From a virus, in the IMG/VR virus record IMGVR_UViG_3300037247_001689, positions 32,001 through 96,000 of that record: a stretch of 64,000 nucleotides of DNA; one strand, 5' to 3'. The notes under the pieces were generated by a model, which was given only the letters and a program-made list of their open reading frames with translations, was not told the origin of the DNA and made no database searches. The position numbers and the translations under genes were made by a program. Of this stretch, positions 2,344 through 18,881 are shown in pieces (position 1 is the first letter of the stretch; every line of letters starts with the position of its first letter).

Positions 2344-5300
2344 ATGCCAAAAGCAATCACAGTAAGCAGCCTATCGAATTACACCCCCATGTTTAAAGCG
2401 ATCAAAACCAAGATAAAAGAACCCACATTTAAGTTACAAGGCAGTTATATCTTCCAAGGATTACCTATTTCAGTTGAAAATAAAGCCGGTTCAATGCGTC
2501 GAAGTATGCCAGGAGAAAAACCGGTCTGGTCGACTAAAATGGGTTATGATTATGGTTATATCCGCAATACTGAAGCAAAAGACAAAGAAGCGGTTGATGT
2601 TTATGTGAGACGGAAGTCAAAAGGTAAAAAACCTCCTTATCATGACATTTCGGGCGGGGAACTCGTTGACCAAGCGGTTTACGTCATCCATCAAAAACAA
2701 ATCTGGAAAACCTCAAAATGGCATAATGGTATCTGTCCTGATTGTCATAAGCACCATACAGAATGTAAACACGCTTACGATGAAGATAAAGTGATGTTGG
2801 GTTTCGATTCTAAAGAAGATGCTATTAAAGCATATCTTGGTCAATACGATTCATCACGCTTTTTAGGTCCAGTGTCCACTTACACACTATCTGAATTCAA
2901 AGCTTCTCTAAAAAATTCATGGGGTAAGAAATTACCCTATAAAAATAGTAAACATGAACATTGGGTGGGCGTTGATTTAGACGGGACATCAGCAATTGAC
3001 GATGGATGGAAAGGGAAAGAACACATTGGCGAACCGATTGAGAAAATATGGAAAAGAATAGATAAGATACTTAGTCAAGGCGGGAAAGTTAAAATTCTTA
3101 CTGCCAGGGCATGGGATAAAAAAGCAATCAAACCGATTCAAGATTGGATGAAGTTGAACAACAAACCCATATTAGAAATCACCAACAAAAAAGATCCCGG
3201 CATGGTTGAAATTTGGGATGATCGAGCGAGAAGAATTGGGAAGAATACCGGAAATTTAGTGAAAAGCTTTTACGTTGATTTAGACAAATCATATCTTGGA
3301 CAATCAGGAGATAAATTCGGGAGTACAGCAATGTTACAGGAAAACCTAAGCAAGAAAAATTCAAAGGCTGTTATTGTTTCAATGGGTGATAATAAAAAAG
3401 ATAGAATGGAATGGATACGGCAACATAATGCAAGAATGTTAGGTGTTAAACTTGATAAAGGTTGCATGAAGAAAATGTTTGTTAGTAATCAAATGAAAGA
3501 TGAAGACCAGTATGATTACGATGTTTGTTCAAAATATGCAGCTTTTCAAGCCGAAATTGAGGATAAATACCACAAAAATAAATTCCCCAACGAAACCAAA
3601 CACGAATACATTGAGCGCACTAAAAAAGAAACCATCGCCAAACAAAACCAAATGATAACCGGTTATATGCAGAAAGCCGTTATCATCAAACGTGAGGACA
3701 TGGAAAAAGGATTTGTTAAGCAGCATACCCGGAAAGGAAAAGTTGTCGCTTCCTATTTCACTAAAACAAAAAAGAAAATTGCCGGTGTAAAACACAAAAG
3801 ATTGCACCGCTTGGACATGAGCGAAAAGCAAGCTCAGGAGAAAATAAAACTAATCGAGAAAGCCAAAACATTACACGATGATCATATCAGACTTGCAAAG
3901 GACCATAAAAAGGAAGCTGAAGCGGCCAAATCTGACGGTAAAGAACACTATGAAAAGCATGGCAGGAAGTATCTGATTGATCCAGCAATCAGTCACCTAA
4001 ACGACCACATCAAACATCATGAGAATAAACTTGAATCCCATAACAATCATATCAAAAAGATTGAACAACGCCACGAAACAGATGCAGCGTATTTTGATAA
4101 AAAACGGGAAAAGTCCAAGGCCAAAAAGCAAGAGAAAGCCCCTAAAAAGGATGGATTAACTTTCTCTGATCAAAAAGAATACATGTCATGGTACCGTAAG
4201 CAATCAAAACACGATCAAGAAAATCATAAGTTAGATAGGAAGGACGGTAAGCTGGTTGTTACAATGACAGGTAAAGAACCGGTTAAGAAAGAGGAACCAG
4301 TTAAGAAAGTTGTGGTTGCCAAAAAAGAAGAAAAGCGCCTTCCCAAAAAAGCAGTTATTGTTAAACGGGAAATCATCGACGTTCCAACGAAGTATACTGA
4401 TAATAGTAACAGGAATAATTCAGATGTAAATAGATCTAAAGAATCAATAAATGAAGGCTTAATGATATTGAAAGCTGGAAAATTGCCGCCAGGAAAACAG
4501 GAATCTATTGAACGGGCCATTAAAAATTCAATGGATAGGATTGATGGTATTCTTGAACCTAAAAAAGATAGCATTGGAGAATTGGAGAACCGCAATAAAA
4601 CCCTGATTGAAACAATGAAAAATTTGTCTTCTGAAAGTGCGTTCAGAGGCGGGAAAGTAACTGAAGAAGGTGAAAAGTTAAAGGATGAATGGCGAGCAGC
4701 ACAACAGGAAAGTGCTGGGATAGTAAAAAAGATTAATGAGTTGAAAGATAAAAAAATAAAAACCGAAAAGGATAGCAAGGGTAGTTTGATATCAAGATCG
4801 GCACTAAAAACGCTAAGTACCGCAGAGGAAGATTTAAAAGAACACAGTTATAAACTTGGAACAATTCATTTAGATAGGATATCAAGCCATCTTAAGTTTG
4901 CAAAAGAGAAAAAATTACTTCCTGAATCCAAATTGGAAAATATAGAAAATGCATTAAATGATGCTAAAAGAAGCCGTTCCGAAGCCCTAAAAGGAAACAA
5001 GAACGCTTACAAGGGCGGTCCAAAAGAAGAGGCTAAAAAAGTAATTGTCAAAAAAGAAGAAGATAAGAAGCCGATTTCTAAAAAAGCGGTGATTGTTCCT
5101 CGTGAGAAGATCACTGATTTTGGAGAGAAAATTGGTGGTGCGAGAAAGGATGAGTGGAAGAATAAATACCTAAAAGGGAAAGACATTTTTGAGTTAAATG
5201 ATCGTGAAATTGTAAAACATGTTAAGAAGGATAAAATTTGGCCAAAACCCGATTACGAGAAAATGATAAAAGAAGGAAAAGATCCAGTTGTAGCACATCT

Positions 5301-7266
5301 GATTAAAAAAGTCAGAGATGGATTACCCGCAAAATTAAATCTTCCTTCTTATAAAGAATCTCAATTAAAAGAATATGCCCAAAAATATGTTCAATTTATA
5401 CAGGATGCCAGAGAAACATTGTTGAAAGTAAAAACTGTTGATGATTTCAAAGATGTCATATCTAAAATATTTCATGATGAATATGAAAAAGGAAAAGGCT
5501 GGACTGTGACGGGTGCAGATCCAAGCAAGGCGTATTTCTATAATAGTAGAGTTAGAAAAGCTATGAGTATTTCAACTTGGGATATAAGTAGGTCTAAAAA
5601 AGAAGTTGATAAAGGGTGGGGTCTGTCCGAACCATGGATGAAAGACCTTACTATAAAAGAATATCCAATTAATCTTGCCACAATGAAACGTGATGATCCA
5701 CACACATTCATGGTAAAAGGCGAAGGCGTGACCAGCCCTTATTTTGAGTCAGAAAAAGAAGCAACAGATTGGGCAAAAACAAGACACGAGGCATTAAAGG
5801 ATCACAAAGTAACGCATGGTGAAGTCTCCAAGAAAAATAAGGAAACAGGCGAATGGGAAAAGAAAAGCGGGTGGTTTGCTACAAAAGGTAGCACAATCAT
5901 GTCAGAAGTAATGGGAACCAAAAAAGCAGTTGAAGATTATTTAATGCTCCAGCATACACTAAAACCAGAAGCAGGAAAGAAAAAGCAAAAACCTAAATTT
6001 ATCAGACCCCAATTAAGAACCATTGAAAGAACTGGCAAGGAACACCGGAAAGGTGAAAGTACAACCACTAAAGATTTTCATGAAACGTTCGGATTTAAAG
6101 GTGGTGAATTTGGAAATTGGAATACTCAGTCCGATAGACAGCAAACGATGGACCATGCCAGTGATGCAATGAATGATTTAGCTGATGCTATCGGCATTGA
6201 TCCAAAAGAGATATCATTCAACGGCGACCTGTCAATTGCCTTTGGCGCAAGAGGTCAGGGTTTTAGTGGTGCTTCTGCTCATTATGAACCGGATAGAAAA
6301 GTAATTAATCTTACTAAAATGAAAGGGGCAGGTTCACTCGCGCATGAGTGGGGGCATGGTTTAGATGATTATATTAGAAAAGTATCCGGCACCCAAACTG
6401 TAAAAAGTAAAATGGCGACTGATGCATTACACCCTAAAGAGGGGGGATTGTCGGCGGAGCAGGTAAAAGCCTTTAATAATATAGTTGAAACTATGACGAG
6501 AAAAAAACTTCCATTATCAGAGCATCAAGAAAACCTTAAAAAAGAGATTGAGAAGCATACTAAAGGATTAAAAAGCACTCTTGCGGGGATAAGAGAAGAT
6601 TTAGTAAAAAGTAAAGAGTCTGGTAACAAGTTAATCACTGATGCAGGTTTAAAAGAATTTGATAAAGAAATCGTCCCAAATATTCTAAAAGGGCCATCTA
6701 AAGGTGACAAACAAATTCAAGATGGTAAGAAAAAATATGATTTTATCCATGAAAAATTGCATTATTTAACAAATGAATTCTACAAAGATAGAATAGGCAG
6801 GAACGAAAGCCGGTATAAAAATAACCTTCAATATTATTACAACAATATAGGCTATTCAAAAGAAAGCCTGGCTAAAGGTAGTGATGTCACACTTCCAAAA
6901 AGAGATAGCAATTTCAAGAAAGGCGCAAGGAAAATGGGTGACCTTTTCGGGAAATCTTCATACTGGCCAAGCAATGTTGAAATGTTCGGGAGAGCATTTG
7001 AATCATATGTTCATGACAAGGTGAAAGCTAAAGGTAATAAATCAGATTATCTTGTTCACAGTACCAGTAATGATAATTATCAAGTGTATACTGATCCAAA
7101 AACAGGTGAATATCCACAACCATATCCTGAAGGGAAAGAAAGAGTAGAAATAAACAAAGCATTTGATAATTTTTTCAAACATTTCAAGAAAGGAAGCCAG
7201 TTTCAGAAACCTTCTAAGAATATGAAGAAGGCTTTTAAGGGGGTTATCATTAAACGAGTTAGTTAA
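2344..7266 (+). CDS. large polyvalent protein (pyrophosphatase-like, HAD phosphatase, His-rich leader module, LPD5-like, zincin metallopeptidase, LPD1-like)
   Basis: GLPISVEN..YDYGYI..DKEAVDVYV..YDEDKVMLGF (polyvalent InPase-type); VDLDGT/TAR/WDDRA (HAD); ITDFGEKIGGARKD (LPD5-like); FGFKGGEFGNW..AHYEP..GSLAHEWGH (zincin); YW..EMFGRAFESYV..YPEGKER..INKAFD (LPD1-like). Confidence 0.85.
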   Translation: MPKAITVSSLSNYTPMFKAIKTKIKEPTFKLQGSYIFQGLPISVENKAGSMRRSMPGEKPVWSTKMGYDYGYIRNTEAKDKEAVDVYVRRKSKGKKPPYHDISGGELVDQAVYVIHQKQIWKTSKWHNGICPDCHKHHTECKHAYDEDKVMLGFDSKEDAIKAYLGQYDSSRFLGPVSTYTLSEFKASLKNSWGKKLPYKNSKHEHWVGVDLDGTSAIDDGWKGKEHIGEPIEKIWKRIDKILSQGGKVKILTARAWDKKAIKPIQDWMKLNNKPILEITNKKDPGMVEIWDDRARRIGKNTGNLVKSFYVDLDKSYLGQSGDKFGSTAMLQENLSKKNSKAVIVSMGDNKKDRMEWIRQHNARMLGVKLDKGCMKKMFVSNQMKDEDQYDYDVCSKYAAFQAEIEDKYHKNKFPNETKHEYIERTKKETIAKQNQMITGYMQKAVIIKREDMEKGFVKQHTRKGKVVASYFTKTKKKIAGVKHKRLHRLDMSEKQAQEKIKLIEKAKTLHDDHIRLAKDHKKEAEAAKSDGKEHYEKHGRKYLIDPAISHLNDHIKHHENKLESHNNHIKKIEQRHETDAAYFDKKREKSKAKKQEKAPKKDGLTFSDQKEYMSWYRKQSKHDQENHKLDRKDGKLVVTMTGKEPVKKEEPVKKVVVAKKEEKRLPKKAVIVKREIIDVPTKYTDNSNRNNSDVNRSKESINEGLMILKAGKLPPGKQESIERAIKNSMDRIDGILEPKKDSIGELENRNKTLIETMKNLSSESAFRGGKVTEEGEKLKDEWRAAQQESAGIVKKINELKDKKIKTEKDSKGSLISRSALKTLSTAEEDLKEHSYKLGTIHLDRISSHLKFAKEKKLLPESKLENIENALNDAKRSRSEALKGNKNAYKGGPKEEAKKVIVKKEEDKKPISKKAVIVPREKITDFGEKIGGARKDEWKNKYLKGKDIFELNDREIVKHVKKDKIWPKPDYEKMIKEGKDPVVAHLIKKVRDGLPAKLNLPSYKESQLKEYAQKYVQFIQDARETLLKVKTVDDFKDVISKIFHDEYEKGKGWTVTGADPSKAYFYNSRVRKAMSISTWDISRSKKEVDKGWGLSEPWMKDLTIKEYPINLATMKRDDPHTFMVKGEGVTSPYFESEKEATDWAKTRHEALKDHKVTHGEVSKKNKETGEWEKKSGWFATKGSTIMSEVMGTKKAVEDYLMLQHTLKPEAGKKKQKPKFIRPQLRTIERTGKEHRKGESTTTKDFHETFGFKGGEFGNWNTQSDRQQTMDHASDAMNDLADAIGIDPKEISFNGDLSIAFGARGQGFSGASAHYEPDRKVINLTKMKGAGSLAHEWGHGLDDYIRKVSGTQTVKSKMATDALHPKEGGLSAEQVKAFNNIVETMTRKKLPLSEHQENLKKEIEKHTKGLKSTLAGIREDLVKSKESGNKLITDAGLKEFDKEIVPNILKGPSKGDKQIQDGKKKYDFIHEKLHYLTNEFYKDRIGRNESRYKNNLQYYYNNIGYSKESLAKGSDVTLPKRDSNFKKGARKMGDLFGKSSYWPSNVEMFGRAFESYVHDKVKAKGNKSDYLVHSTSNDNYQVYTDPKTGEYPQPYPEGKERVEINKAFDNFFKHFKKGSQFQKPSKNMKKAFKGVIIKRVS

Positions 7267-7269
7267 TAA

Positions 7270-7580
7270 TTAAATATCATTTTGGCAGGAATGATCTCCA
7301 CATTTACACTTTTCAAAAGGGAAAAGAATTGGTTGTAAAAACGAAATACTCATCCCATTATCGAAGAACATAAGATGGTTAGTTTCTAAAACTTCTCTGC
7401 CAGTATTAACTTTACTGACATCAACTTCTGGTTTCCAATCTAAACCGGTTAAAGAAGCAATCTGGACCTTATCAGAATCAATATTGTACTCACCATATGA
7501 GATATTAATGTTCCAAAATGTTCTTCATAATCGCCATTAAATTGTGTTCCTTCATAATAAAATTTATAAGTTGCATCCAT
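7270..7580 (-). pseudogene. frameshifted small gene, about 103 codons if repaired
   Basis: ATG 7580 after GGGGAATTAAG SD reads MDATYKFYYEGTQFNGDYEEHFGTL; the -1 frame is open from about 7527 to TAA at 7270 (SYGEYNIDSDKVQ...CGDHSCQNDI) and fills the gap to the 1640-aa gene. Confidence 0.55.
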
Positions 7581-7630
7581 CTTAATTCCCCAATTTTGAT
7601 GTTATGGTTTAATTCCGATTTCTTGATCCA

Positions 7631-7679
7631 AATATATTTTATCTGTCGGAATCCGTCAAGTAAATAATAACTTATTTTA
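7631..7679 (-). promoter_or_regulatory. repeated promoter/operator cassette, copy 1
   Basis: TTGACG-17-TATATT on the minus strand; 36 bp (7644-7679) identical to 15863-15898. Confidence 0.8.
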
Positions 7680-7752
7680 TTAAACACCCAAACGTTTGCC
7701 ATTCCCCTACATAAATAGTACCTTTCAATAAACCACTATCAAAAGGAACCAA

Positions 7753-7992
7753 ATGAAAAACTACACAATCACAATCTTAGGCAAAGAAACAATTGTCATT
7801 TCAAAGACTAAAAAACTGGAAATCGTCAACGGCGAAATCGGTCATGCCATTAAAATCATCGAATCACCGATTTTAACAAGATACATCCCCCTTATAAACA
7901 TTACCTCAATGGTCATTGAAGACTTAGATAAAAAGTCAGATATGGCGAAGAAGCAACAAAAACACATTGATAAATTGAAAGGGAAAAAATAA
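7753..7992 (+). CDS. hypothetical protein
   Basis: AAGGA SD; stop overlaps the next ATG. Confidence 0.7.
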   Translation: MKNYTITILGKETIVISKTKKLEIVNGEIGHAIKIIESPILTRYIPLINITSMVIEDLDKKSDMAKKQQKHIDKLKGKK

Positions 7993-9005
7993 TGTGCGAA
8001 GCTTGCGGAGATTCAGAACACCAAAAAGTTGAGATAATGAAAGCCGGAATACAAACCGGAATTTATCACATGGATTCATATTCAGATTACTACCCGGGAT
8101 TAAATATCTACGACATAGAATATGACAGCATGGCTAAGGCAATCAACATCTCAACTCAAATCACGCAACACGGTGAAGCCTCATTCGATGACTATATGCA
8201 GGAACTACTGCTGGATTTAAGCACAGAAATGCGCACGAATCCAAAAGAGCATATAAGCATGATATTAAGGCGTTTTAGCGAGAGGAAATTTAAAGACAAG
8301 GATTGGTGGGGCAATCTCACTAAAGATGAAATAAACGAGCTTTTGAGTGGAATCAGGGAATATTATGCGACTCACACGCTACTTTTAGAAAGCGGGTTAG
8401 CTGAAGCCTATAAATTCGGAAAGTTTCACACGCTTTTAACAGAATCAATGACCTTAAAGCAAGCAAAGAATAAGGTTAAAACCCTTAAATTAAACCCTTA
8501 TGATAAAGCGAGATTAGACACAATTCAACAAACATCCGGTCTATTTATGGATCGGGTTATCCAGAGACAAGTCGATACTGCAGCGATAAAAATTCTGGAA
8601 CGTAACAGAGATTTTATCACAAAAGTACTTGTAAATAATGATGAAAAATCATGGCGCTCACTGGCAAGTGATATCTACCATGGAATGGAAAGAGACGCTA
8701 AAGTCGTAGTGAGGGATATTGACCGGATTACCAGGACAGAGATTGCTCATTCTCAGAATTATGCTATCTTAATGGATGGCAAAGATCGAGGGAAGAAATA
8801 CGCAATTGTCAGAGTGAGAGATACGGCCTGTCCACTTTGTAAAGGGATGTATTTGAATAAGGATGGAACCCCAAAGAAGTTTTTGCTGGATGATTTAATT
8901 GGCGTTCCGAGGGATGTTAATTGGGGTAAGAAGCCTAAAGATTTCAAGCTACAAGCACCGGTTTTGCATCCATATTGCTTCTGTGTTCTTTTAGTTTTAG
9001 CTTAA
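7992..9005 (+). CDS. MuF/SPP1 gp7-like head morphogenesis protein
   Basis: RITRTE, D..ACPLC and PVLHPYCFC motifs typical of MuF C-terminal domains. Confidence 0.8.
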   Translation: MCEACGDSEHQKVEIMKAGIQTGIYHMDSYSDYYPGLNIYDIEYDSMAKAINISTQITQHGEASFDDYMQELLLDLSTEMRTNPKEHISMILRRFSERKFKDKDWWGNLTKDEINELLSGIREYYATHTLLLESGLAEAYKFGKFHTLLTESMTLKQAKNKVKTLKLNPYDKARLDTIQQTSGLFMDRVIQRQVDTAAIKILERNRDFITKVLVNNDEKSWRSLASDIYHGMERDAKVVVRDIDRITRTEIAHSQNYAILMDGKDRGKKYAIVRVRDTACPLCKGMYLNKDGTPKKFLLDDLIGVPRDVNWGKKPKDFKLQAPVLHPYCFCVLLVLA

Positions 9006-9460
9006 TGATATCAAGTACTTGCAACATTTGATTGATTAGTTCACGAAATCACTACATTATTGTTTATTGAATACCCTCTTTACATTCCCACTTGAATCTG
9101 TTTCAAATTTGTACCAAATATTCGATTATATACAAATAACATCATTAATTTTGTTAAATGCTTCTATCATTAAACCCTCTAAAACTCCAGTTGTTCTCAA
9201 TACTGATTGTTTGTGCTGCAATTTCCAGTCTTTGATAATTGCTTCAATCAACTTAACCTTTTCTTTATCTTCCATATTATTCCTTTACGAAATCACTAAT
9301 CTACAAATTCCCTTGAACAAATCCCAACCGGATAGATTGACCTGCGATAAATTCGAGTGATTGTTCCTTGATCTTTCTCTTATCAATTGGAATTGTACTT
9401 GCAACCCCATTTTCGATTAGAACCGTACTCCAAAATATTCCAGGTACGGTTGCAATGTTT

Positions 9461-9814
9461 TTAGTTTTTGTCATAGAATTTCTCCGCCATTTCAGGGTTT
9501 TCGTATTTATTACCTATTTCAGTCCAATTTTCAACACCTTTATCAAGAGCGATAGAAACACCACCCGTAAAAATTCGCCAATCTGGACCATGTTTTGTGA
9601 TTATTCCGTTAATAGCTCCATTAGTTATGATATCACCTTGGTAAAGTTCTGTTTTGTCCTTGTCGTGCCTTTCTGAGGATAGGATTAGGATTAAATGTTT
9701 ATCAGCTTTTTCAATCCACCCCCTTAAGTCAAAATGCATTAATTCGCCGATTTCATTAATATAAAAATCAAGATTACTTAATCTATTCTTTTTATCATCC
9801 CAAACCTTAAACAT
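9461..9814 (-). CDS. YopX family protein
   Basis: FKVWD...DKDKTELYQGDII...EIGNKYENPE; start moved to the ATG behind an AGGAG SD. Confidence 0.85.
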   Translation of the reverse strand: MFKVWDDKKNRLSNLDFYINEIGELMHFDLRGWIEKADKHLILILSSERHDKDKTELYQGDIITNGAINGIITKHGPDWRIFTGGVSIALDKGVENWTEIGNKYENPEMAEKFYDKN

Positions 9815-9824
9815 CTTTTCTCCT

Positions 9825-10298
9825 TTATTGACTGAGACTCCTATAGCATGTCTCAATATATTTACTTCCTATGTTTACCCTAACAACCATATTATTAAAC
9901 ACATAATTGACAAATTCAGCGCCCATAATTAGAACGAGCTTCCCGTTCAATATTGTTTTTTCAATATCTTTGACGGTTATTTCTCTTTGACACATTCTTA
10001 ATACGCAGTGCCTATGTAATTTATATTGAGAATGTTCTTTTCTGTCAGGCGAAGATTTTCTTAGTACCAAATCATGTCCAGTGTTGATATGCTCTGTTGG
10101 TATTTTAATTTTAACAGACCTCAATGGTACTACATGATTGCATTTTATACACCATTTGAACCCTTTATTAATTATTTCATATTCATGTTCACATGCGTCA
10201 CTTAATGATATCGCGTGGTCACATTTTAGGCATCTATAATAAAAATTACCTTTCTTTTTTCTTGATGGTGTTAATTTGTAATCATGCTCGCATTCCAT
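9825..10298 (-). CDS. Zn-ribbon repeat plus DUF4258-like (RelE/BrnT-fold) protein
   Basis: Two CEHxY..CxKCxH units; C-terminal HCVLRMCQREITVKDIEKTILNG..Y..VRVN. Confidence 0.6.
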   Translation of the reverse strand: MECEHDYKLTPSRKKKGNFYYRCLKCDHAISLSDACEHEYEIINKGFKWCIKCNHVVPLRSVKIKIPTEHINTGHDLVLRKSSPDRKEHSQYKLHRHCVLRMCQREITVKDIEKTILNGKLVLIMGAEFVNYVFNNMVVRVNIGSKYIETCYRSLSQ

Positions 10299-10306
10299 AA
10301 TCCCTC

Positions 10307-10495
10307 TTATCCTTTTGCCACAATTTCGGTTTTATTAACCTCAACCATGCAATCGTTGACGAATTCCATATCAGAAGCCAATTGTTCCTGATTATCTGGC
10401 TCTTCATCCCATCGTTGGTCAAATCTCTCACGGGCATGAGTCAGCATATTTTTAAACGCCATGAACTCAGATACTGTGTCACATTGAATTTTCAT
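10307..10495 (-). CDS. hypothetical protein
   Basis: Acidic 62-aa ORF packed in a minus-strand operon. Confidence 0.6.
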   Translation of the reverse strand: MKIQCDTVSEFMAFKNMLTHARERFDQRWDEEPDNQEQLASDMEFVNDCMVEVNKTEIVAKG

Positions 10496-10503
10496 AATTT
10501 CTT

Positions 10504-10719
10504 TTATTCTTTTAGTGAATCATTAACACTTTTTATTTCATCGAATACATTGGAATTAACATCTTTTTTACACAACTTGTAATCTTCAAGCGGACAATCA
10601 GGATGTATTTTATCAATGTTAAATTTTGGATCTGCTGGGATTGGACAGCCTTCTATTTTTAAATACAGCTCAATATAAATACACTCCCTGCAAAATTCTA
10701 TTTTTAATGCTCTAGCCAT
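10504..10719 (-). CDS. small Cys-rich hypothetical protein (start uncertain)
   Basis: CxECxY..CP..IHPDCPL pattern. Confidence 0.55.
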   Translation of the reverse strand: MARALKIEFCRECIYIELYLKIEGCPIPADPKFNIDKIHPDCPLEDYKLCKKDVNSNVFDEIKSVNDSLKE

Positions 10720-10787
10720 AATAAACCAAATATAAAGTATGTTATCCACCCCTATCTTTTTAATTACAGAGGTAGTGGATGGGGTTA

Positions 10788-10964
10788 TTAATAGTCTGGG
10801 TGCATTACTATAAAAATATGAGGGCAATAGTCACATTCGACTGTTTGAACTTGTTTTTTATCTTTGTTGAACTCAAAATTATCCACATCAATGTCAAAAT
10901 AATCATGACATTTTGGACATTCAACCTCAAATGTTTCTACTTTTTCGCATTTCACTGTTTCCAT
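10788..10964 (-). CDS. zinc-ribbon protein
   Basis: ECPKC and ECDYC pairs; GAGAGGGG SD. Confidence 0.65.
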   Translation of the reverse strand: METVKCEKVETFEVECPKCHDYFDIDVDNFEFNKDKKQVQTVECDYCPHIFIVMHPDY

Positions 10965-11009
10965 AACACCCCTCTCAAATAATATATATAGTATATTCAG
11001 CAATGAATT

Positions 11010-11228
11010 TTAATTAAAACCTTCGATAAAATTACGCATTTTATCCTGAGTATCCAAATTGTTTGTTATCAATAATTGCATACCCATTTGAATCGCAATA
11101 TGCCCTGCTGTTTCGGGATGATTGCCTAAGTCAGAAGCCATTGAAGTGTACGCTCCTGTCGTATCTCCTGTGTCTAAAATCTCAATAGCTCTTTTCTTGC
11201 TCCAATCTAAATGCTCTTGCCTTGTCAT
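11010..11228 (-). CDS. phage hypothetical protein
   Basis: CAGGAGACGA SD then MTRQEHLDWSKKRAIE... Confidence 0.7.
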   Translation of the reverse strand: MTRQEHLDWSKKRAIEILDTGDTTGAYTSMASDLGNHPETAGHIAIQMGMQLLITNNLDTQDKMRNFIEGFN

Positions 11229-11303
11229 TATTTCGTCTCCTGAAGTTAAAATACTATATTCACCCACGACTCCGATTTTTTGAAAGCCGTGGGAGCGATG
11301 TTT

Positions 11304-11579
11304 TTAGATATTTCTTGTCTTAACCGAGTTAGCAATATAGCAAAACCGGATTGCTTTTTTAACGCTTGTATATTTTCTTAAAATAAAACCAACCTGACCG
11401 GCTCTATTAGCCCCGATTAAAACAACATTTGTCTTTAGTCCCATGGATGGTACAATTCTGCACTTGTTAATTTTACCAGTTACCGTTCTCTTTTTCCTGT
11501 TAACCGGCTTTTGATGATCAGTTGGATTTGTTTGTCCGATCATGTTATTTTTGTGTTTTTTTGATTGCAAAGTAAACAT
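11304..11579 (-). CDS. basic hypothetical protein
   Basis: GAGAGGG SD; first gene after the promoter at about 11700. Confidence 0.55.
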   Translation of the reverse strand: MFTLQSKKHKNNMIGQTNPTDHQKPVNRKKRTVTGKINKCRIVPSMGLKTNVVLIGANRAGQVGFILRKYTSVKKAIRFCYIANSVKTRNI

Positions 11580-11675
11580 TTTCCCTCTCAAAATAAGTTT
11601 CAAATTCCTACGATATCCAACCTCTAACAGTGACCTTTTGACCCATGCGGGTAGGTATGTTTTAGTTGTTGATTG

Positions 11676-11705
11676 AATATATAACTTATATTAATTAAAT
11701 GTCAA
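11676..11705 (-). promoter_or_regulatory. sigma70-type promoter with ATAAGTTAT box
   Basis: TTGACA at 11705-11700, AT-rich -10 region; ATAACTTAT at 11681-11689. Confidence 0.55.
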
Positions 11706-11734
11706 GTATTTATTTTCCCTGATAAATTTTGGAC

Positions 11735-11771
11735 AAAAAAAATGCGTACCGTTTTACCGATACGCATTTTT
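11735..11771 (-). terminator. intrinsic terminator after the OMP gene
   Basis: ATGCGTATCG/CGGTACGCAT stem followed by a T run on the minus strand. Confidence 0.75.
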
Positions 11772-11833
11772 AAATCTTAATGCCGATTCAATTGCAAAAA
11801 CTATATACTTAACTAAGTTGGATAATTTGTCAA

Positions 11834-12580
11834 CTAATAATCTGATTGGCTAAATGGAATTCTAATACCGATTGAAATCATATTGGCACTCATATTCCCG
11901 TGAGTGTATTCAATCCCCTTTCTTTTATTAGGAGCATTAATATTTTTATATTCAAGCGAAATCATCATTCCTTCAGGATGACTTTGATCCCAAGATATAT
12001 CTATTTTAGCCCCTTTAATAGTGGCTTGATCAATCTTAGCCTTGTTACCGTTTTTATCCTCAGCCTCTACCATTCCAAATCCCCCAAATATAGCAAAATT
12101 CCAATCTGATCTTGTTGTCAGATACAGCCCTGCTAAAAGAGAGTACATTTGGACCTCCCATTCATGGTGAAAAGCCGACCCTTCGAGTTTTCTTTTCTGT
12201 ATTTTTGTAAAATTAGAATATTGGAATTGCAAATAAACCCATTTATTAAAGTTTGTTCTGATTCCAAGCTCATAGTTTGTCATCTCAAACTGTTCTTCAC
12301 CGTTAGAAGGTGTCATGATCATAGGAAACATAATTTCGCCTTCCCAATTAGATCTCTCATAATCAATATTAGATTGAGTACCTGCTTCACATGTAAAATC
12401 ACATGTTTTACATACAGGACATGCCTTTTGTGTATCTTCACAAACAAATGATTCAGATTCAACAGGCGCAGGGCAAAACTTTTCCTGAACAAAATTAAGT
12501 TTTTTTGGTGCTGGCGGTTCTGCAAGACAAATCCCCGAAACAAAAAACATCATCGTAAATAAAATCAATAACTTTTTCAT
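11834..12580 (-). CDS. outer-membrane beta-barrel protein with Cys-rich N-terminal segment
   Basis: Signal peptide; alternating amphipathic strands (YELGIRTNF, VYLQFQY, FAIFGGFG, ISLEYK, ISIGIRIPF). Confidence 0.65.
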   Translation of the reverse strand: MKKLLILFTMMFFVSGICLAEPPAPKKLNFVQEKFCPAPVESESFVCEDTQKACPVCKTCDFTCEAGTQSNIDYERSNWEGEIMFPMIMTPSNGEEQFEMTNYELGIRTNFNKWVYLQFQYSNFTKIQKRKLEGSAFHHEWEVQMYSLLAGLYLTTRSDWNFAIFGGFGMVEAEDKNGNKAKIDQATIKGAKIDISWDQSHPEGMMISLEYKNINAPNKRKGIEYTHGNMSANMISIGIRIPFSQSDY

Positions 12581-12712
12581 ACTTTCTCCAAATGGAATTT
12601 AAAATTAACTAGTTGAAATATTATTAAAAATGACAGGTATTAAGTCAAATAGCCCTGTTTGACCATAAAACAGCTTTCAATTAGGATAAAATTAAATTTA
12701 AACGAGGTTATT

Positions 12713-12868
12713 ATGTTCGAGAAAGGCATTTACGCCCTTTTCTTCCTGATCGGTCTATATTATATGATTGGTGTGACATGCTTTAGTACAGATGAGAATA
12801 TCGTATGGCTTAGAGATTTTGTCGGAGTAGAAGAAAAGTGCTCAATTGTGCTTAAAAATAAATTATAA
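12713..12868 (+). CDS. small membrane protein
   Basis: GAGG SD; one hydrophobic segment. Confidence 0.55.
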   Translation: MFEKGIYALFFLIGLYYMIGVTCFSTDENIVWLRDFVGVEEKCSIVLKNKL

Positions 12869-12876
12869 AGGTTAAA

Positions 12877-13302
12877 ATGGCAAATAACGATCAAAAATTG
12901 AAGAAAGATTTTGAAGAACTGAAGATAACAAATACCGATCTTGGCAAAAAATTGGGTGTTGTTTCAGGTGAGTTGACAAAGGCGAATAAGAAAATTGAAG
13001 AAGATTCAAAACTGTCAGATCAGCTAAAAACAGCAAATGAAAAAATCCAGGCTTTGGAATCTGAAAAATCAAAACTTGAAAAAGTAGTTGGTAAAGTTTC
13101 TGGTACATTTCCAAAATTACCACTTATAAAAGACCAAATCACAGAAAATATCAAAATTTGTGAAGCCGGTTTCGGGCAAAATGATGACATGAGAAAAGTA
13201 GTCTTTCTTTTGACTACTAAAAAAGAAGGGAAAATAATGATGACAGCAACATACAAAGACGGAAAATGTGTTGATGTTAATTTCCAACCGATACTAAAAT
13301 AA
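12877..13302 (+). CDS. coiled-coil protein
   Basis: Heptad-rich N-terminal half with repeated V(V)GxVSG; overlaps the next start. Confidence 0.7.
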   Translation: MANNDQKLKKDFEELKITNTDLGKKLGVVSGELTKANKKIEEDSKLSDQLKTANEKIQALESEKSKLEKVVGKVSGTFPKLPLIKDQITENIKICEAGFGQNDDMRKVVFLLTTKKEGKIMMTATYKDGKCVDVNFQPILK

Positions 13303-13829
13303 TGGAAGCAGAAGAAATTTTTGAACGGGAACATGGGCCAAAAAAACCTGTAAAAGAAGAACATAAATCGCCAATTGTGGATGGACGGATATTGGCTGTT
13401 GATGAGAAACTTACAAAGATTCAGGTTTTTGCAACAAAGTGGCAACGTCAGTTAGTTAAAAATGAAACATTGCTATCCTTTGTCTGTTTTTTTTTAGGTG
13501 TCATATACTCCTACGCCATAAATAAATGCACAGGGGATTTTAATGTTGCTTGGTATACATATGTTTTAGCTATTGGATGGGGGATATCGTTTTCTCTTTT
13601 ACTTATCAGAGAGGGCAGTCTCCCACTTTCAATTATTGCTAAATTTATATTAATATTCCTTGTTGGACATGTATCGTTAATGTTTTTTGTTGCGGCTGAT
13701 TCCCAAACATTTCATTTATTCACTGTTAATGTTTGTCGCATCCCTTTCGGGTGGAATGAATTAACATGGTGGACTTTGGGATTATTAAGCGGGTACTTAA
13801 TAATTAATTTATACAGAATTAAAAGATGA
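13302..13829 (+). CDS. integral membrane protein (about 4 TM, possible holin-like)
   Basis: Four hydrophobic segments, basic C-terminus. Confidence 0.65.
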   Translation: MEAEEIFEREHGPKKPVKEEHKSPIVDGRILAVDEKLTKIQVFATKWQRQLVKNETLLSFVCFFLGVIYSYAINKCTGDFNVAWYTYVLAIGWGISFSLLLIREGSLPLSIIAKFILIFLVGHVSLMFFVAADSQTFHLFTVNVCRIPFGWNELTWWTLGLLSGYLIINLYRIKR

Positions 13830-14266
13830 AGTATATTTTTATATTATTGATATTATCAGCATGTAGTGGGGAACTTAAAAACCCTGAAAAAGTTGAAAAG
13901 TTCGAATTCCCAGAAAAGCCAGTGATAGAAATAATTCCAGCTTTAGTTCTAAGTGATGTCATTGGTGATGATGTCGAAATGATCACAGAGCCGAAAGGTG
14001 ATAATGATGAATTGTTAAAAAAGATTGATCAACTGGTTTTAGATATGAAAGATATCCAAGAAAAATCAGTTTCCAAAATTGAACACAAGAAGCAGATACC
14101 AATTTCAGAAGTATTAAAAGACAAAAGCATCAAGCATACTGGACATTACGGCGGTGGAACGAATTGCAGGGGTAAGATATATCGAAAAGAATATTATGAA
14201 TCGTGGTTGTATTTTCATGTTGATTGCAACGGAAATTATACAGAACAACAAGTAAGGAGAAGATAA
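13826..14266 (+). CDS. lipoprotein
   Basis: MKYIFILLILSA-C lipobox; ATGA overlap. Confidence 0.7.
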   Translation: MKYIFILLILSACSGELKNPEKVEKFEFPEKPVIEIIPALVLSDVIGDDVEMITEPKGDNDELLKKIDQLVLDMKDIQEKSVSKIEHKKQIPISEVLKDKSIKHTGHYGGGTNCRGKIYRKEYYESWLYFHVDCNGNYTEQQVRRR

Positions 14267-14547
14267 TGTTTTTTGGATGGGAGGAGGTAGTTGCATTTTG
14301 GTTGGCTTTCGGAGGAATATGGTCAGTAGCTTTAATTGCGTTATTGATGGTGGTAGGCCAATTGTCTTTAAACAAATTAAAAACACCTACTGATATTGTT
14401 CAGAGAAGGAATTATAAAGACAGCATTTCCAACGCAAATTTGGGGAAAACGAATCTAAGAAGGTTTGCTGAAGCATCAAGGATGTTAGTTATAAATTTTA
14501 TTATTGTCGTCTCATTTTTAGTAATTCTGTATAAGATTTTTTCATGA
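14266..14547 (+). CDS. 2-TM membrane protein
   Basis: AAGGAG SD, TAATG overlap, two hydrophobic segments. Confidence 0.65.
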   Translation: MFFGWEEVVAFWLAFGGIWSVALIALLMVVGQLSLNKLKTPTDIVQRRNYKDSISNANLGKTNLRRFAEASRMLVINFIIVVSFLVILYKIFS

Positions 14548-15467
14548 ATCAAATAATTATCCCTCGCAGCGAATTCTTCCAGAAAGGATTCGTGAAAGCG
14601 CACACGAGAAAGGGCAAGCAAGTCGCCTCGTACTTCACTAAAACCAAGAAAAACGTAGCCATTGTTCGCCACAAAACCAAGACCAGAATGGATTTAAGCG
14701 GTGACCAAGCGAAGGCGAAAATCAAAGCTTTGGAATCGAAAAAACAGCGCCATTCAGAGCATATCGACCACGCCACGATTTTAAAAGCAGAGGTTGAAAA
14801 GCACAAAGCACAAGGAAATACCCATTTTAAAGTAGGGAAAACAGAGCATCATGTGGATAAAGTCTTGAAAGATTTAAAAGACCATATCGACCATCATTCC
14901 AATGAAAAAAAGTCCCATGATAATCATATAAATAAAATCAAAGATCGGCACGAAACGGAGGCGAAACACTGGGAGAAGAAAGCGGTGGTAATTGAGTCTA
15001 AGAAAAAGCTTCCTAAGAAGGCAGTGACGATCTCTGGTAAAAAAATTAAGGGTAACAGCGGGAAAACAAAAACATATGAAATAAGTACAAGAGAAAAGGT
15101 GAGTCAAACAACTGGGAATTTAGATTATACTCTTGAAAAACTAAAAGGTAATGAAATAATTGATATCAAAGATGTTAAGGAATATGGTGAGACTTTAAAA
15201 CTTGTAAAATACTGGAAAACAAGATCAGCCATAGTTGAATCAAAAACCAAAGAAGATGCAATCAGTAAGATAGAATCAAATAGGTTCGGACTCGGAGCAT
15301 CTACTATTGAAATTGTAAGCGTAAAAGAGATTGATAGCAAAAGAAGTAAACAGAGTAAACAACCTATTATTGAAGCTGAGGAAATACTTTATGAAATGGA
15401 TGCAAAAGGGGTAGATAGATATTTGGGGTACACAAGAAAAGAGCTTATGGACAGCCTTGGTTTGTAA
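14544..15467 (+). CDS. polyvalent-family protein with shared FxKGFVxxHTRKGK leader
   Basis: First ~160 aa homologous to residues ~445-600 of the 1640-aa protein and to the N-terminus of 15981. Confidence 0.8.
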   Translation: MNQIIIPRSEFFQKGFVKAHTRKGKQVASYFTKTKKNVAIVRHKTKTRMDLSGDQAKAKIKALESKKQRHSEHIDHATILKAEVEKHKAQGNTHFKVGKTEHHVDKVLKDLKDHIDHHSNEKKSHDNHINKIKDRHETEAKHWEKKAVVIESKKKLPKKAVTISGKKIKGNSGKTKTYEISTREKVSQTTGNLDYTLEKLKGNEIIDIKDVKEYGETLKLVKYWKTRSAIVESKTKEDAISKIESNRFGLGASTIEIVSVKEIDSKRSKQSKQPIIEAEEILYEMDAKGVDRYLGYTRKELMDSLGL

Positions 15468-15492
15468 AGCCTGTAAGGAAAACAGGCTTTAC
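15464..15492. terminator. hairpin between convergent genes
   Basis: GTAAAGCCTGT / ACAGGCTTTAC perfect 11-bp stem. Confidence 0.7.
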
Positions 15493-15498
15493 TTACTA

Positions 15499-15801
15499 CT
15501 ATTCCCAATCATTGAGAGCGCTTTTAAGATAATTTATCTCAGATTCAAAAAATGCCTTTGCAGTTTTATTTTCCACGAAAGTTTCTTGATCAGCGTCAAC
15601 TTTGTCTAACAGAATATAATGCAAATATCTATCAGCACAAGCGTCTGACATATTTGAATAAGCTTTTTGGATTTCGACCAACTCAACGTCCCATTGCCCA
15701 TCTTTAAAAAGATATTCGCTATCGGACGGGATAAAGTTTTCAATAAGCTCATATCTTTCTTCATCTGATAAATTCACTTCCATGTTTGTTGTTGTTTCCA
15801 T
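15499..15801 (-). CDS. acidic hypothetical protein
   Basis: AAGGAGACGA SD; lies downstream of promoter copy 2. Confidence 0.75.
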   Translation of the reverse strand: METTTNMEVNLSDEERYELIENFIPSDSEYLFKDGQWDVELVEIQKAYSNMSDACADRYLHYILLDKVDADQETFVENKTAKAFFESEINYLKSALNDWE

Positions 15802-15849
15802 TTCGTCTCCTTAAAGTTTCAATTAAAAATACCCTCACTCGTTAAATTT

Positions 15850-15898
15850 AGAATCACAAACTTGTCGGAATCCGTCAAGTAAATAATAACTTATTTTA
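15850..15898 (-). promoter_or_regulatory. repeated promoter/operator cassette, copy 2
   Basis: TGTCGGAATCCGTCAAGTAAATAATAACTTATTTTA at 15863-15898. Confidence 0.8.
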
Positions 15899-15980
15899 AA
15901 ATAAAAACAAATCACCCCCTGTTTGCCTTTCTACTACCTTTAATAGTATAGATAAACAAACCCATATACTATAGATAAAA

Positions 15981-18881
15981 ATGCAAATAGTCATTCCAAG
16001 ATCAGAATTTTTCCAAAAAGGTTTTGTCCATCAGCATACACGTAAAGGCAAAACTGTTGGTCCTTATTTCACTAAAAGATTACCCGGCAAGGTTAAGGAA
16101 AAACATACCCGTGAACGATTCCATGATCATGATAAAGCGAGCGCAAAAAAAGCCCATGACGAACTTGAATCTAAAAAAGAAAAATCTAAACTAATCCTTC
16201 AAGCCCTGAAAACGGAGCATAAAAAGCTTACTAAAGAAGGACCAATCAAAGATGAAAAAATTCCCCATGGTGATAAATTATCGCATTTAAAACAGCATAT
16301 CAAAAACGAAGAACAACACATAGATAACCATTCTCGCAAGCAAGGACATATTAAAAACCGCTATGTAATCGCAGGAAAACAGCACGAAGCCAAACGGGCT
16401 AAATCCGAACTTGAAAAGAAGATAGAACCACATTCTGAGGCTCAAAAAGAAACGATTCGAAAAATCCATGAACATGGGAAAGATACCCACGAAACCGGCA
16501 GAGTCTTATCAGGAAAAGATAAAGATCATGTCTACCTTGAACGAAAAAACAAAGAGACCGGTGAAACCAAACATATTGCCATTCATAAAGATGGTGAGAT
16601 TAAAGACCCTAATATTTTACATGAAGGGAAGTTTGATTCTAAAACGTTGACCGATAAACAAGCACAGGCAGAAAAGAAACAAGTAGTCGTCAAAATGCCT
16701 GAGAAAAAAGAAGCTAAAACATCAAAAGATCATAAAGTATTCCCTAAAAAAATGACATTCCCCGCAATCCAAAAATACTTTCATGAAAACGATGTCAAAA
16801 AAGGAATGACATTTCAATTAGGCGATGCAAAGGGAACTAAAATAAACAAGGTGGTATCCGTTGACGATAATAAAGTCGTTATTCAGATGGAAAACGGGAT
16901 TAAGCACGAAATCAAAGTTGACCCGAAAGTAAAGAAGGAAATTAAATCCACCAGTGAAAAAGTAGCTCAGATTAAAAAAGAAATTGAGACGGTTAAGAAA
17001 ACTGAAGCCGAGGAAAAAGAAAATCGGTCTCAGGCGATGAAAGGCAATAAGAACGCTTACAAAGGAGGACCGGAAGATAGGGAAATTACAAAAGCTATCA
17101 AGAAAGAGTTAAAGATTAAGCCCGTCTTAAAAGGAATGGCAATAAGCACTGATTTACTGGATAATGGTCGGGCTGAATTAATGGGTAGAAGTATTAAGGA
17201 TTCAAGAGAAATGGCTGCTATCGCCCAAGTGTTCCGTGATCCAAGATATGAAACAATACGGTATGTTTTAACAAAAAAAGATAAAGTAGTTGCTCATTTA
17301 GCCGTTACCAGTAAAATGCCAGCTTTAGCGTTAGTGTCTCCCAAAAAACCTGGCGAAAAACAAACAAGCGCAGTAGATTTTTTAAGTGGAAAGATGAAAG
17401 AGCATTCAGCTGATGGATATTATCTAATACACAATCATCCATCAGGGGATCCGAATGCATCAGATGCGGATATAAACATAACAGGAGTTTTAGCTTCAGC
17501 CGTTCTGGGGTTCAAAGATCATATAATTATAAATTCTAACAAATATGCCAGTATTAAAAGAGGAAAAGGTGGTAGATTTATGCAAGAAATCAATGATCTA
17601 AATGGAGGCAAAGATGAGATATTAAAACCATCGTTAGATCATCCATTATTAGGACAATTAGTAAATAGCCAACAATCTCTTGCAGAAATTTCAAAAGATT
17701 TTCAAAATAGTGATAAATATTTTACCTTAGTCGGCGCTGATAATAAGTTAAAAACACGAACAATTCTTGAAATGCCAATGGATATGACTAAAAATAACCC
17801 AGCATCCAGAAAAGCATTTGAAAGTTTTTTAAGAACACACACAAGGGAAACTGGATCAAATCATTTCTTTATTGCAGGACTTGATAATAACGCGAGTAAT
17901 AGAAAGTTTTTAGCTAATGCAGAACATCATGGGTTGATATTGGATGCACATTTTAATGACAATAAAATTCTTTCTGAAATGGGTCAGGAGAAACATACGC
18001 TTATTGATGGGGATAAAACATTTTCCGATTTACCAGAAAAAGAAGTAACTGGTTATTTAACTGAAGAAAAACCGAAAGAACCTAAAAAAGTAACAGTGCA
18101 GAAACAAGTTAAGAGTGAGAAAAAGTCAGGAAACATATTTGATAAGGAATTTTCTGAAATTAAAGAGTTAGCCGAATCAAAAAAAATCACTCCAGAGCAA
18201 ATAGCGGAGGATCAAAAAAAATCGTCATATGACCATAAGGGATATAAAATATATCCATCTTTGTACCGTGACGGTATAAAATGGGTCGCTCAATCAACTG
18301 ATCATAAAGAAAAAAATACCCCTGTTGGCGAAGGGATGGGGGACTCTGTTCATAAATCAAAAAAAGAAGCAGAGGAACAAATCGATTGGAATATAAAAAG
18401 CTCAAAATCTAAGAAAAAAGCAGAGGAATCATTAAATGATCAAGAAAAAAAACAGATCGAAAGGGAAAAAGAATATAAAAACATTGATGGATTTGCCGAT
18501 AAGGAAGAAAAATTAAAAAAAGGTAGAATTTTAAAATACTTAAATGAAAGTATGAATTATCAAGGAAAGCCGTATATCAGGAAAGAGCTTATCAGGGAAA
18601 AGATAAAAAAAGGATGGAAAATAGGCAAGTCACAAAGGCATGGAAAAATATTAGAGGATGAAGAAGGAAGCTCATTTTTGACAAAAAAAGATATTACAAA
18701 AACGGCTATTGATTATGCTGAATATCTAATTAGTAGAAAAGACTTGGAAAAATCTATAAAACAAAAATCACCCCAACTAAAATCCCTAGAACAAAAAGAA
18801 GAACTATCAAAATCACTAGAAAAACAAAAAGCGTTAAAGGAAAAACGAAAACGTAGGAAAAAACGTAAAGGTAAAAAATAA
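15981..18881 (+). CDS. large polyvalent protein with RadC-like JAB/MPN domain
   Basis: Shared leader; YET..IHNHPSGDPNASDAD..DHIII JAB motif; K/R-rich C-terminal tail. Confidence 0.85.
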   Translation: MQIVIPRSEFFQKGFVHQHTRKGKTVGPYFTKRLPGKVKEKHTRERFHDHDKASAKKAHDELESKKEKSKLILQALKTEHKKLTKEGPIKDEKIPHGDKLSHLKQHIKNEEQHIDNHSRKQGHIKNRYVIAGKQHEAKRAKSELEKKIEPHSEAQKETIRKIHEHGKDTHETGRVLSGKDKDHVYLERKNKETGETKHIAIHKDGEIKDPNILHEGKFDSKTLTDKQAQAEKKQVVVKMPEKKEAKTSKDHKVFPKKMTFPAIQKYFHENDVKKGMTFQLGDAKGTKINKVVSVDDNKVVIQMENGIKHEIKVDPKVKKEIKSTSEKVAQIKKEIETVKKTEAEEKENRSQAMKGNKNAYKGGPEDREITKAIKKELKIKPVLKGMAISTDLLDNGRAELMGRSIKDSREMAAIAQVFRDPRYETIRYVLTKKDKVVAHLAVTSKMPALALVSPKKPGEKQTSAVDFLSGKMKEHSADGYYLIHNHPSGDPNASDADINITGVLASAVLGFKDHIIINSNKYASIKRGKGGRFMQEINDLNGGKDEILKPSLDHPLLGQLVNSQQSLAEISKDFQNSDKYFTLVGADNKLKTRTILEMPMDMTKNNPASRKAFESFLRTHTRETGSNHFFIAGLDNNASNRKFLANAEHHGLILDAHFNDNKILSEMGQEKHTLIDGDKTFSDLPEKEVTGYLTEEKPKEPKKVTVQKQVKSEKKSGNIFDKEFSEIKELAESKKITPEQIAEDQKKSSYDHKGYKIYPSLYRDGIKWVAQSTDHKEKNTPVGEGMGDSVHKSKKEAEEQIDWNIKSSKSKKKAEESLNDQEKKQIEREKEYKNIDGFADKEEKLKKGRILKYLNESMNYQGKPYIRKELIREKIKKGWKIGKSQRHGKILEDEEGSSFLTKKDITKTAIDYAEYLISRKDLEKSIKQKSPQLKSLEQKEELSKSLEKQKALKEKRKRRKKRKGKK

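Follow-up and report, generated by a model that had tools for sequence, protein, structure and literature searches.

A conserved basic module shared by three polyvalent-type proteins encoded among the head genes of a tailed phage, and its possible role in virion delivery

This study concerns a protein module shared by three proteins, P0001, P0002 and P0003, that are encoded in a 64,000-nucleotide window, by which we mean the whole stretch of DNA analysed: bases 32001-96000 of the virus record IMGVR_UViG_3300037247_001689 in IMG/VR (G000 below), which is 116,332 bp long, has direct terminal repeats and is the genome of a tailed phage. All coordinates are window positions. The module represents an unnamed domain family and is the constant front of swappable effectors that are probably delivered by the virion. 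An earlier note on this DNA had described the three proteins as putative capsid-packaged effectors with a common leader and unrelated cargo, and the leader as a packaging and/or DNA-binding tag. The homology of the copies, their N-terminal bias, the diversity of their cargo, their synteny with head genes and the occurrence of gene fusion or fission are all directly observed.

The three open reading frames (ORFs), and the N-terminal and internal sequences quoted for them in the earlier note, are borne out by the translations, with the quoted internal unit of P0001 beginning at nucleotide 3676 as claimed. By BLASTP, residues 1-167 of P0002 and 442-611 of P0001 are 44% identical over 170 amino acids (aa) with E 3e-35, P0002 and P0003 are 39% identical over 157 aa (E 7e-16), and P0003 and P0001 are 37% identical over 139 aa (E 4e-9). 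A profile made from the three copies finds the module at exactly three places in the 116,332-bp genome, those in P0001, P0002 and P0003. The His/Lys-rich coil described earlier is real: the three copies have 9-10% His, a net charge of +17 to +22 and an isoelectric point (pI) of 9.9-10.1. They fall into two types, type A being P0002/P0001-like and type B, which is P0003-like, being 7 residues shorter in the second helix.

The first 32 codons of P0002 and P0003 specify 25 identical residues, and 16 of these 25 are encoded by different codons, which argues that the likeness is kept by selection at the protein level and is not the mark of a recent DNA copy. Recent gene conversion among the module copies was rejected, since the synonymous sites differ. 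With regard to the idea of an N-terminal tag, the module of P0001 is internal and thus cannot serve in that way in this protein.

We could not place the module in a known family. It matches no Pfam family at E <= 1 beyond sub-threshold coiled-coil noise, the modules have no match in NCBIfam, and the whole of P0002, which includes a module copy, has none in PHROG. No relative was found among the INPHARED phages (by tblastn), among viral contigs (with a profile from alignment A1), in a set of 185,579 bacterial and archaeal genomes with one per species, or in the ESM Atlas. The sole match among PDB sequences is a designed TIM barrel, which we take as chance.

The module profile was then searched against 1.84 billion representative proteins and gave 35 matches at E <= 1e-3, 32 of them at E <= 1e-10; together with P0001 and P0003 these make up the family of 37 proteins that we analysed. 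The module is N-terminal, starting within the first 26 residues, in 26 of the 37 and internal in 11, one of which (P0017) is a fragment while the other 10 all begin with an InPase domain. Over the whole family the Pfam domains are InPase (10 proteins), ART-PolyVal (4), LPD1 (4), ddrB-ParB (3), RadC (2), ADPrib_exo_Tox (1) and Peptidase_Mx (1). Behind the 26 N-terminal modules the cargo is ART-PolyVal in three proteins, ddrB-ParB in three (one also with RadC), and ADPrib_exo_Tox, RadC alone, Peptidase_Mx and LPD1 in one each, with no Pfam family in the other 16. It had been proposed that a profile built from the three leaders would match mostly at N-termini and on diverse cargo, and this is what we see, the cargo being of polyvalent type. 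The family is restricted to one phage clade.

Within the window the cargo differs from protein to protein. Only P0001 combines at least two domains of the polyvalent repertoire in one polypeptide (InPase and LPD1, with a HExxH motif in addition); the known domains of P0003 are limited to the RadC-like JAB, which keeps the H-x-H...S-x-x-D (JAMM) motif, and P0002 has none. The earlier assignment of LPD5, zincin and LPD1 to P0001 and of JAB to P0003 is therefore upheld in part: LPD1 and JAB are sound Pfam matches, LPD5 is an unconfirmed sub-threshold match (E 0.09, 9.6 bits), and, because the MPTase-PolyVal model PF18818 finds no match in P0001, the zincin call is that of the HEWGH motif by itself. 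Nor is the cargo wholly unrelated, as P0001 and P0003 also have the linker motif RS-x-A-[LM]-KGNKNAYKGGP in common. In the closest homologue of P0002, P0004, the leader is 68% identical and the cargo has been replaced by unrelated sequence. RadC-like JAB domains within polyvalent-type phage proteins occur both in P0003 (17400-17561) and in L010:614-4387.

The genes for P0001-P0003 lie between the portal gene and the protease and capsid genes (29.9-33.3 kb), i.e. among virion and packaging genes. We compared five genomic contexts, G000, G001, G002, L010 and L011, located with sub-alignments A3 and A4. Leader genes lie between the portal and the protease/scaffold/capsid genes in all three of the longer records, with three in G000, four in G001 and two in G002, and each of these records has at least one type A and at least one type B copy. 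G001 (79,459 bp, 68% complete) is syntenic with G000, and its leader genes encode proteins of 314 aa, 585 aa (L013:136-1893; a divergent leader with DUF3560 cargo, E 2e-35), 431 aa and 635 aa (ADPrib_exo_Tox). G002 (73,894 bp, 64% complete) has the leader and head genes in a nearly co-directional block of about 19 kb. The block starts with a polyvalent protein that is truncated at the contig end (no fewer than 1759 aa, with ART-PolyVal and an internal module), a gene like that at 7992 and homologues of the genes at 12877 and 13302; it continues with a small two-transmembrane protein, a type-B leader protein whose cargo is ART-PolyVal, a homologue of the gene at 18881 and an SLT enzyme, and it ends with the protease, a gene in the scaffold position and the capsid protein. 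L010 has a small transmembrane protein, then a 1257-aa type-B protein (RadC and ddrB-ParB) and then an 18881 homologue, and in L011, where a small transmembrane protein also comes first, the contig ends within the type-B leader gene that follows it. At one and the same locus the cargo is thus JAB in G000, ADPrib_exo_Tox in G001, ART-PolyVal in G002 and RadC plus ddrB-ParB in L010. All five contexts are from one and the same phage clade. The association with one type of protease and capsid protein, also proposed earlier, holds for G000, G001 and G002, which have homologous protease, scaffold and capsid genes, while L010 and L011 are too short to reach them.

In G001 the InPase is a separate ORF of 424 aa, the stop of which lies within a 4-nt overlap with the start of the 314-aa leader ORF, so that P0001 is a fusion exactly at the front edge of the module. 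Such fusion or fission between G000 and G001 is what one would expect if the module had no targeting role and were an ancestral structural or linker domain, kept after fission and shuffling in ordinary cytoplasmic phage enzymes, and the confinement of the family to one clade and the many low-complexity Lys-rich linkers are in keeping with that. However, it does not sit well with the strong protein-level conservation over 37 proteins despite saturated synonymous sites, with the repeated replacement of cargo at a fixed locus beside head genes, or with a hydrophobic peptide that depends on position (below), and we consider it quite unlikely.

This peptide precedes the module. A run of at least three hydrophobic residues is found there in 24 of 25 N-terminal copies and in 1 of 11 internal ones (the N-terminal row P0036 was omitted because of an anchor pattern mismatch), for which the Fisher p of 5e-7 is too small because the sequences are related. 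The residues ahead of the conserved K-G/A-F-V are IPSILLFSPFQ in most N-terminal copies and QIIIPRSEFFQ in G000 and its closest relatives. In a single phage the peptide is common to otherwise unrelated proteins, as in P0002 (MNQIIIPRSEFFQ) and P0003 (MQIVIPRSEFFQ). Its presence in N-terminal and rarity in internal copies indicate that it tracks the N-terminus and not the module. By eye, InPase proteins with an internal module bear a similar peptide at their own N-terminus, e.g. MSTQLLLFSPLQKA, with LLLFSPLQKA in the InPase protein to be compared with ILLFSPFQKG.

Three further observations concern the peptide. A likeness to the capsid protein, seen by eye near residue 57 of the G001 capsid protein, was dropped after an ungapped scan with a position-specific scoring matrix (PSSM) of 23 leader peptides over the 582 ORFs of G000, G001 and G002, in which the capsid protein ranks 176th, 10th and 73rd respectively. 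N-termini such as QLLLF and SILLF could presumably be read as sliding-clamp-binding motifs, an idea to which we give low weight. The 585-aa protein of G001 (L013:136-1893) ends in …IPLMLLFKAV, which resembles the N-terminal leader peptide of G001 itself.

It is possible to see in the module a DNA or nucleic-acid tether that has nothing to do with packaging and brings the enzymes to phage or host DNA, as has been proposed for ArdC-N in conjugative polyvalent proteins. The module is indeed strongly basic with a conserved basic hairpin, polybasic C-terminal tails are present in 8 of the 37 proteins, Rad50/SMC-type long helical hairpins are among its structural look-alikes, and ArdC-N is likewise preferentially N-terminal (PMC5512222, in its available parts). 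A tether would leave unexplained both a hydrophobic peptide almost restricted to N-terminal copies and the constant place that the genes keep among head genes; there is also no match to a known DNA-binding family, and the structural matches are generic and below a meaningful level. We regard this as unlikely.

The structure of the module was predicted with AlphaFold2 on a 23-sequence alignment (mean pLDDT, the predicted local distance difference test, 80.5). The model has paired short strands forming a small hairpin at about residues 16-31, a helix at 53-89, a small hairpin at 94-103 and a second helix at 104-154, with pLDDT >= 88 over 51-140. Foldseek against BFVD and PDB gave no match at E <= 1e-3; the top rows are prefoldin beta subunits (E 0.22, probability 1.0, TM-score 0.66 of the target), which the model resembles in topology (helix, beta-hairpin, helix). 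A VIA wide search gave Z of about 10 for ESCRT-III, prefoldin (Z 9.2), Rad50 and many helical hairpins, a level that is common for long helices. As modelled, the module folds as a basic helical hairpin of a generic kind, from which no function can be read.

The prefoldin likeness raises the thought of an assembly hub, in which helix-hairpin-helix units would pair as in prefoldin and bring type A and type B proteins into one multi-enzyme complex. The presence of at least one copy of each type in all three longer records would suit this, as would the top Foldseek rows and the VIA score for prefoldin. However, those fold matches are not significant, there being no Foldseek E <= 1e-3 and the Z values lying below about 13, and part of the tip region is missing in type B, so that we think a hub very unlikely. 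A complex prediction for the P0002 module (A4, 1-165) with the P0003 module (A3, 1-160) scored 0.00, which has no bearing either way on binding.

There are also several short motifs. The strand motif [IV][IV][IV][KP]R occurs six times in the 319 ORFs of at least 60 aa, always in P0001-P0003 and never in the other 316: at residues 446, 671, 916 and 1634 of P0001 (the last 7 residues from the C-terminus), residue 4 of P0002 and residue 3 of P0003. Shuffling of the three proteins gives an expectation of 0.03, and none of 2000 shuffles reaches six. KKVVVKKE-like strings are present in the linkers of relatives, and the G001 InPase protein has the C-terminus ...KKIIVPTEKQVI. The full linker motif RS-x-AM-KGNKNA-x-KGGP is found in 9 of the 37 proteins, twice in the L010 protein, and in those where it is followed by a Pfam cargo domain (P0019, P0020 and P0022) it lies 30-45 residues ahead of that domain. 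The polybasic tails were identified by eye; those of KRKRRKKRK type are on a subset of type-B proteins, namely P0003 and, at their C-termini, P0008, P0019, P0025, P0029, P0033, P0036 and P0037. From their sequences, the strand motifs, linker motif and tails may be processing or docking sites.

A constant front, variable polyvalent cargo, several paralogues and a fixed place in the head region form the pattern of a trafficking domain, and this leads us to the reading that the module is an adaptor, common to polyvalent-type effectors, that loads them into the virion and rides on the DNA, which we favour while holding it to be a little short of an even chance. The constant front comprises a hydrophobic peptide of about 12 aa, almost confined to modules with which the protein begins, a conserved basic beta-hairpin of the sequence KGFVxxHTRKGKxVxxYFTK, and a long, basic, His-rich antiparallel helical hairpin; behind these come Lys-rich linkers with short conserved motifs and then an enzyme cargo that varies from one paralogue to another and from phage to related phage. 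On our reading, the peptide would draw the protein into the head during assembly, much as the capsid-targeting sequence of T4 and the first 30 residues of P1 DarB do, and the basic hairpin would keep it on the packaged DNA, so that the enzymes would exit the virion together with the genome and be at work early in the host. We infer packaging, DNA binding, ejection and processing for P0001-P0003 on this basis. P0001 is a fused form, an InPase protein joined to a leader-bearing protein, and the strand motifs that recur at its domain borders may mark sites of processing, which is the weakest step. A fuller version, in which a folded basic domain of 160-235 aa is the capsid-loading and co-ejection adaptor of cassette-swapping effectors in a clade of ~115-kb myovirus-like phages, and P0001 is a packaged polyprotein cut at the strand motifs, is in our judgement conceivable but rather doubtful.

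There is precedent for the individual steps in the available parts of the literature. Polyvalent proteins have been argued to be packed in the virion and injected, and P1 DdrB to be processed and incorporated into heads (Iyer et al. 2017, PMC5512222). The capsid-targeting sequence is the only part common to the T4 internal proteins (PMC3012670), and the first 30 residues of P1 DarB suffice to package a reporter (PMC9024508).

A number of points weigh against the delivery-adaptor reading. The genomic contexts examined number only five, and the ten family members that we looked up are all metagenomic and, if named, are called "hypothetical protein". As ArdC-N is also preferentially N-terminal, DNA-binding domains can favour that position (PMC5512222, available in part). 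The first 10 residues of the module were modelled at low confidence (pLDDT 52), and the strand motif is absent from the other head proteins of the phage. The T4 capsid-targeting sequence ends in (L/I)-x-E, the site of the gp21-type prohead protease; no (L/I)-x-E site is present in our N-terminal peptides, which read ...PRSE/FF or ...SPFQ/KG.

The remaining points of this kind come from neighbouring genes, two of which had been cited in support of packaging, as a MuF gene at 7992 and a head-tail adaptor gene coupled to that of P0003. The MuF call is not supported, though it may still hold: the 7992 protein has no Pfam match at E <= 1, the MuF model PF04233 has none over the genome at E <= 10, hhalign of a profile of 21 sequences with SPP1 gp7 gives a probability of 0.3, and precomputed Pfam domains are found in 0 of 35 sequences (the protein and its 34 listed homologues), which leaves the weak phrog_115 match. 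Its C-terminal Cys/His motif is one that we take to resemble MuF. The adaptor call for the 18881 protein fares no better, there being no adaptor or connector match in Pfam, PHROG or NCBIfam. The gene is indeed translationally coupled, its start overlapping the P0003 stop (TAATG), has homologues that follow the type-B leader gene in G001, G002 and L010, and is conserved in 37 clusters of uncultured sequences. Its AlphaFold model (pLDDT 74) has its best Foldseek matches to complement C3b macroglobulin-type and Ig-domain proteins (E 7e-6, low TM), and the beta-rich model with such matches suggests an exposed virion or structural protein rather than an adaptor. It is unlike a small immunity protein, though no systematic search for immunity genes was made. 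Lastly, the genes directly upstream of P0002 are membrane or lipoprotein-like and not head proteins. Four overlapping or abutting genes at 12877-14547 encode a coiled-coil protein, a multi-transmembrane protein, a protein with a lipoprotein-like signal (…LILSAC) and the two-transmembrane protein, homologues of which are directly upstream of a leader gene in G001, G002, L010 and L011. They may form a cassette of lysis or spanin type, or else be the membrane partner with which the effectors work.

Source contigs of identical size (116,557; 47,897; 16,427 and 10,935 bp) recur for several module proteins and for 7992 or 18881 homologues, which suggests that module genes share contigs with these neighbours.

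Table. Positions of the features discussed, in window coordinates.
Feature	Position	Strand	Basis
P0001, 1640-aa polyvalent protein: InPase, HAD-like region, shared module, coiled coil, HExxH region, LPD1	2344..7266	+	ORF and translation, Pfam, PHROG
InPase domain, P0001 residues 32-118	2437..2697	+	Pfam PF18823, E 2e-23
HAD-like region with DLDGT motif (motif at residue 211), P0001 residues 200-300	2941..3243	+	phrog_1238, E 1e-5; motif
Shared module, internal, type A, P0001 residues 442-611	3667..4176	+	BLASTP E 3e-35 to P0002; profile match E 1.2e-79
Strand motif VIIKR, first of four in P0001	3679..3693	+	Pattern search
Further strand motifs, P0001	4354-4368, 5089-5103, 7243-7257	+	Pattern search
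Conserved linker motif RSEALKGNKNAYKGGP, P0001	4975..5022	+	Sequence comparison
HEWGH, candidate zincin metal site, P0001 residue 1334	6343..6357	+	Motif only
LPD1 domain, P0001 residues 1538-1616	6955..7191	+	Pfam PF18796, E 1e-19
Conserved 337-aa protein, downstream of P0001 and, in G002, immediately downstream of the polyvalent gene	7992..9005	+	phrog_115 minor head protein, E 5e-4
Small two-transmembrane protein; stop overlaps P0002 start (ATGA)	14224..14547	+	ORF, homologues
P0002, 307 aa	14544..15467	+	ORF and translation
Shared module, N-terminal, type A, P0002 residues 1-167	14544..15044	+	BLASTP, profile, AlphaFold model pLDDT 80.5
P0002 cargo, 140 aa	15045..15464	+	No match in Pfam, PHROG, NCBIfam
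P0003, 966 aa	15981..18881	+	ORF and translation
Shared module, N-terminal, type B, P0003 residues 1-160	15981..16460	+	BLASTP, profile
Type-B-specific extension of ~75 aa, common to type-B proteins	16461..16685	+	All-against-all BLAST of post-module regions; A3 consensus
Linker motif RSQAMKGNKNAYKGGP, P0003	17025..17072	+	Sequence comparison
RadC-like JAB domain, P0003	17400..17561	+	Pfam PF04002, E 1.8e-10; JAMM motif intact (residue 484)
Polybasic C-terminal tail KEKRKRRKKRKGKK, P0003	18822..18878	+	Translation
500-aa protein, beta-strand-rich N-terminal two-thirds, helical C-terminus	18881..20383	+	AlphaFold model, Foldseek
Head protease	29868-30572	+	phrog_1028, E 7e-17
Scaffold-position gene	Between protease and capsid gene, within 29868..33310	+	Position
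Major capsid protein	31406-33310	+	phrog_752, E 8e-21
Baseplate wedge protein	45489-46655		PHROG search
Portal (shortly before the window starts; 3.5 kb upstream of P0001)	-3000..-1132		phrog_11117, E 1.4e-7

The G000 capsid protein is 22-26% identical to the capsid proteins of Bacillus SPO1-like phages. It has a long N-terminal extension, and K-[ST]-FDD-x-L-x-E is kept near residues 65-75 in G000, G001 and G002; from its sequence this stretch is a possible maturation cleavage site. Further downstream two HNH endonuclease genes (59937-60467 and 63365-63847) lie on either side of genes for a DnaB-like helicase and a DnaD-like loader, on the minus strand. A promoter and terminator scan of 1500-21000 was uninformative, with 80 promoter-like sites (71 expected) and 15 terminator-like sites (13 expected).

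Recruitment of large polyvalent effectors to the head is known only for P1 DarB, as far as the available literature goes, and there the signal consists of about 30 N-terminal residues, for which the Dar proteins show no consensus. If the module is a loading handle, it would be a sequence signature by which virion-delivered proteins could be predicted from metagenomes, it would give a list of new candidate early effectors, and it could serve as a natural scaffold for the packaging of foreign proteins. If the folded-adaptor reading is true, the module could be used to search for anti-defence enzymes that are injected, among them many of the 16 proteins that have an N-terminal module and no Pfam family. 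If it is a DNA tether only, it is still a new domain family among polyvalent proteins.

With regard to known systems, the nearest are the polyvalent proteins of Iyer, Burroughs, Anand, de Souza and Aravind (2017), with P1 DarB and DdrB as prototypes. The repertoire is the same (InPase, LPD1, ART-PolyVal, ddrB-ParB, RadC-JAB and HExxH peptidase), and so, in the available part of that paper (PMC5512222), are the location of the genes beside portal or head genes and the proposed role as effectors delivered with the DNA. The difference is that here the repertoire is spread over two to four proteins per genome, each starting with the same module of about 160 aa. No Pfam LPD model matches the module, which is set apart from the LPD domains of Iyer et al. 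by the Pfam models and may equal an unnamed LPD.

There is also a likeness to the MuF polymorphic toxins and other polymorphic toxin systems, which, in the accessible portions of the reports, join a constant N-terminal trafficking part to an exchanged C-terminal enzymatic domain (PMC5576092, PMC3482391, PMC12226406). However, the constant part here is not MuF, and whereas MuF toxins are those of temperate phages, the module phages look lytic, as there is no relative among the bacterial and archaeal genomes searched, which represent 185,579 species with one genome apiece.

In the case of the capsid-targeting sequence carried by T4 IPI-III and Alt and the signal of P1 DarB, the likeness is that of a constant N-terminal element on otherwise unrelated proteins (PMC3012670 and PMC9024508, each available in part). 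Those tags are peptides of 10-30 aa that have been shown to load cargo, that of T4 ending in a protease site, whereas here we have a folded basic domain of 160-235 aa with a short hydrophobic peptide and no (L/I)-x-E, known from sequence. In contrast to the P1 Dar N-termini, for which BLAST gave no consensus in the available part of PMC9024508, the module family has a strong one.

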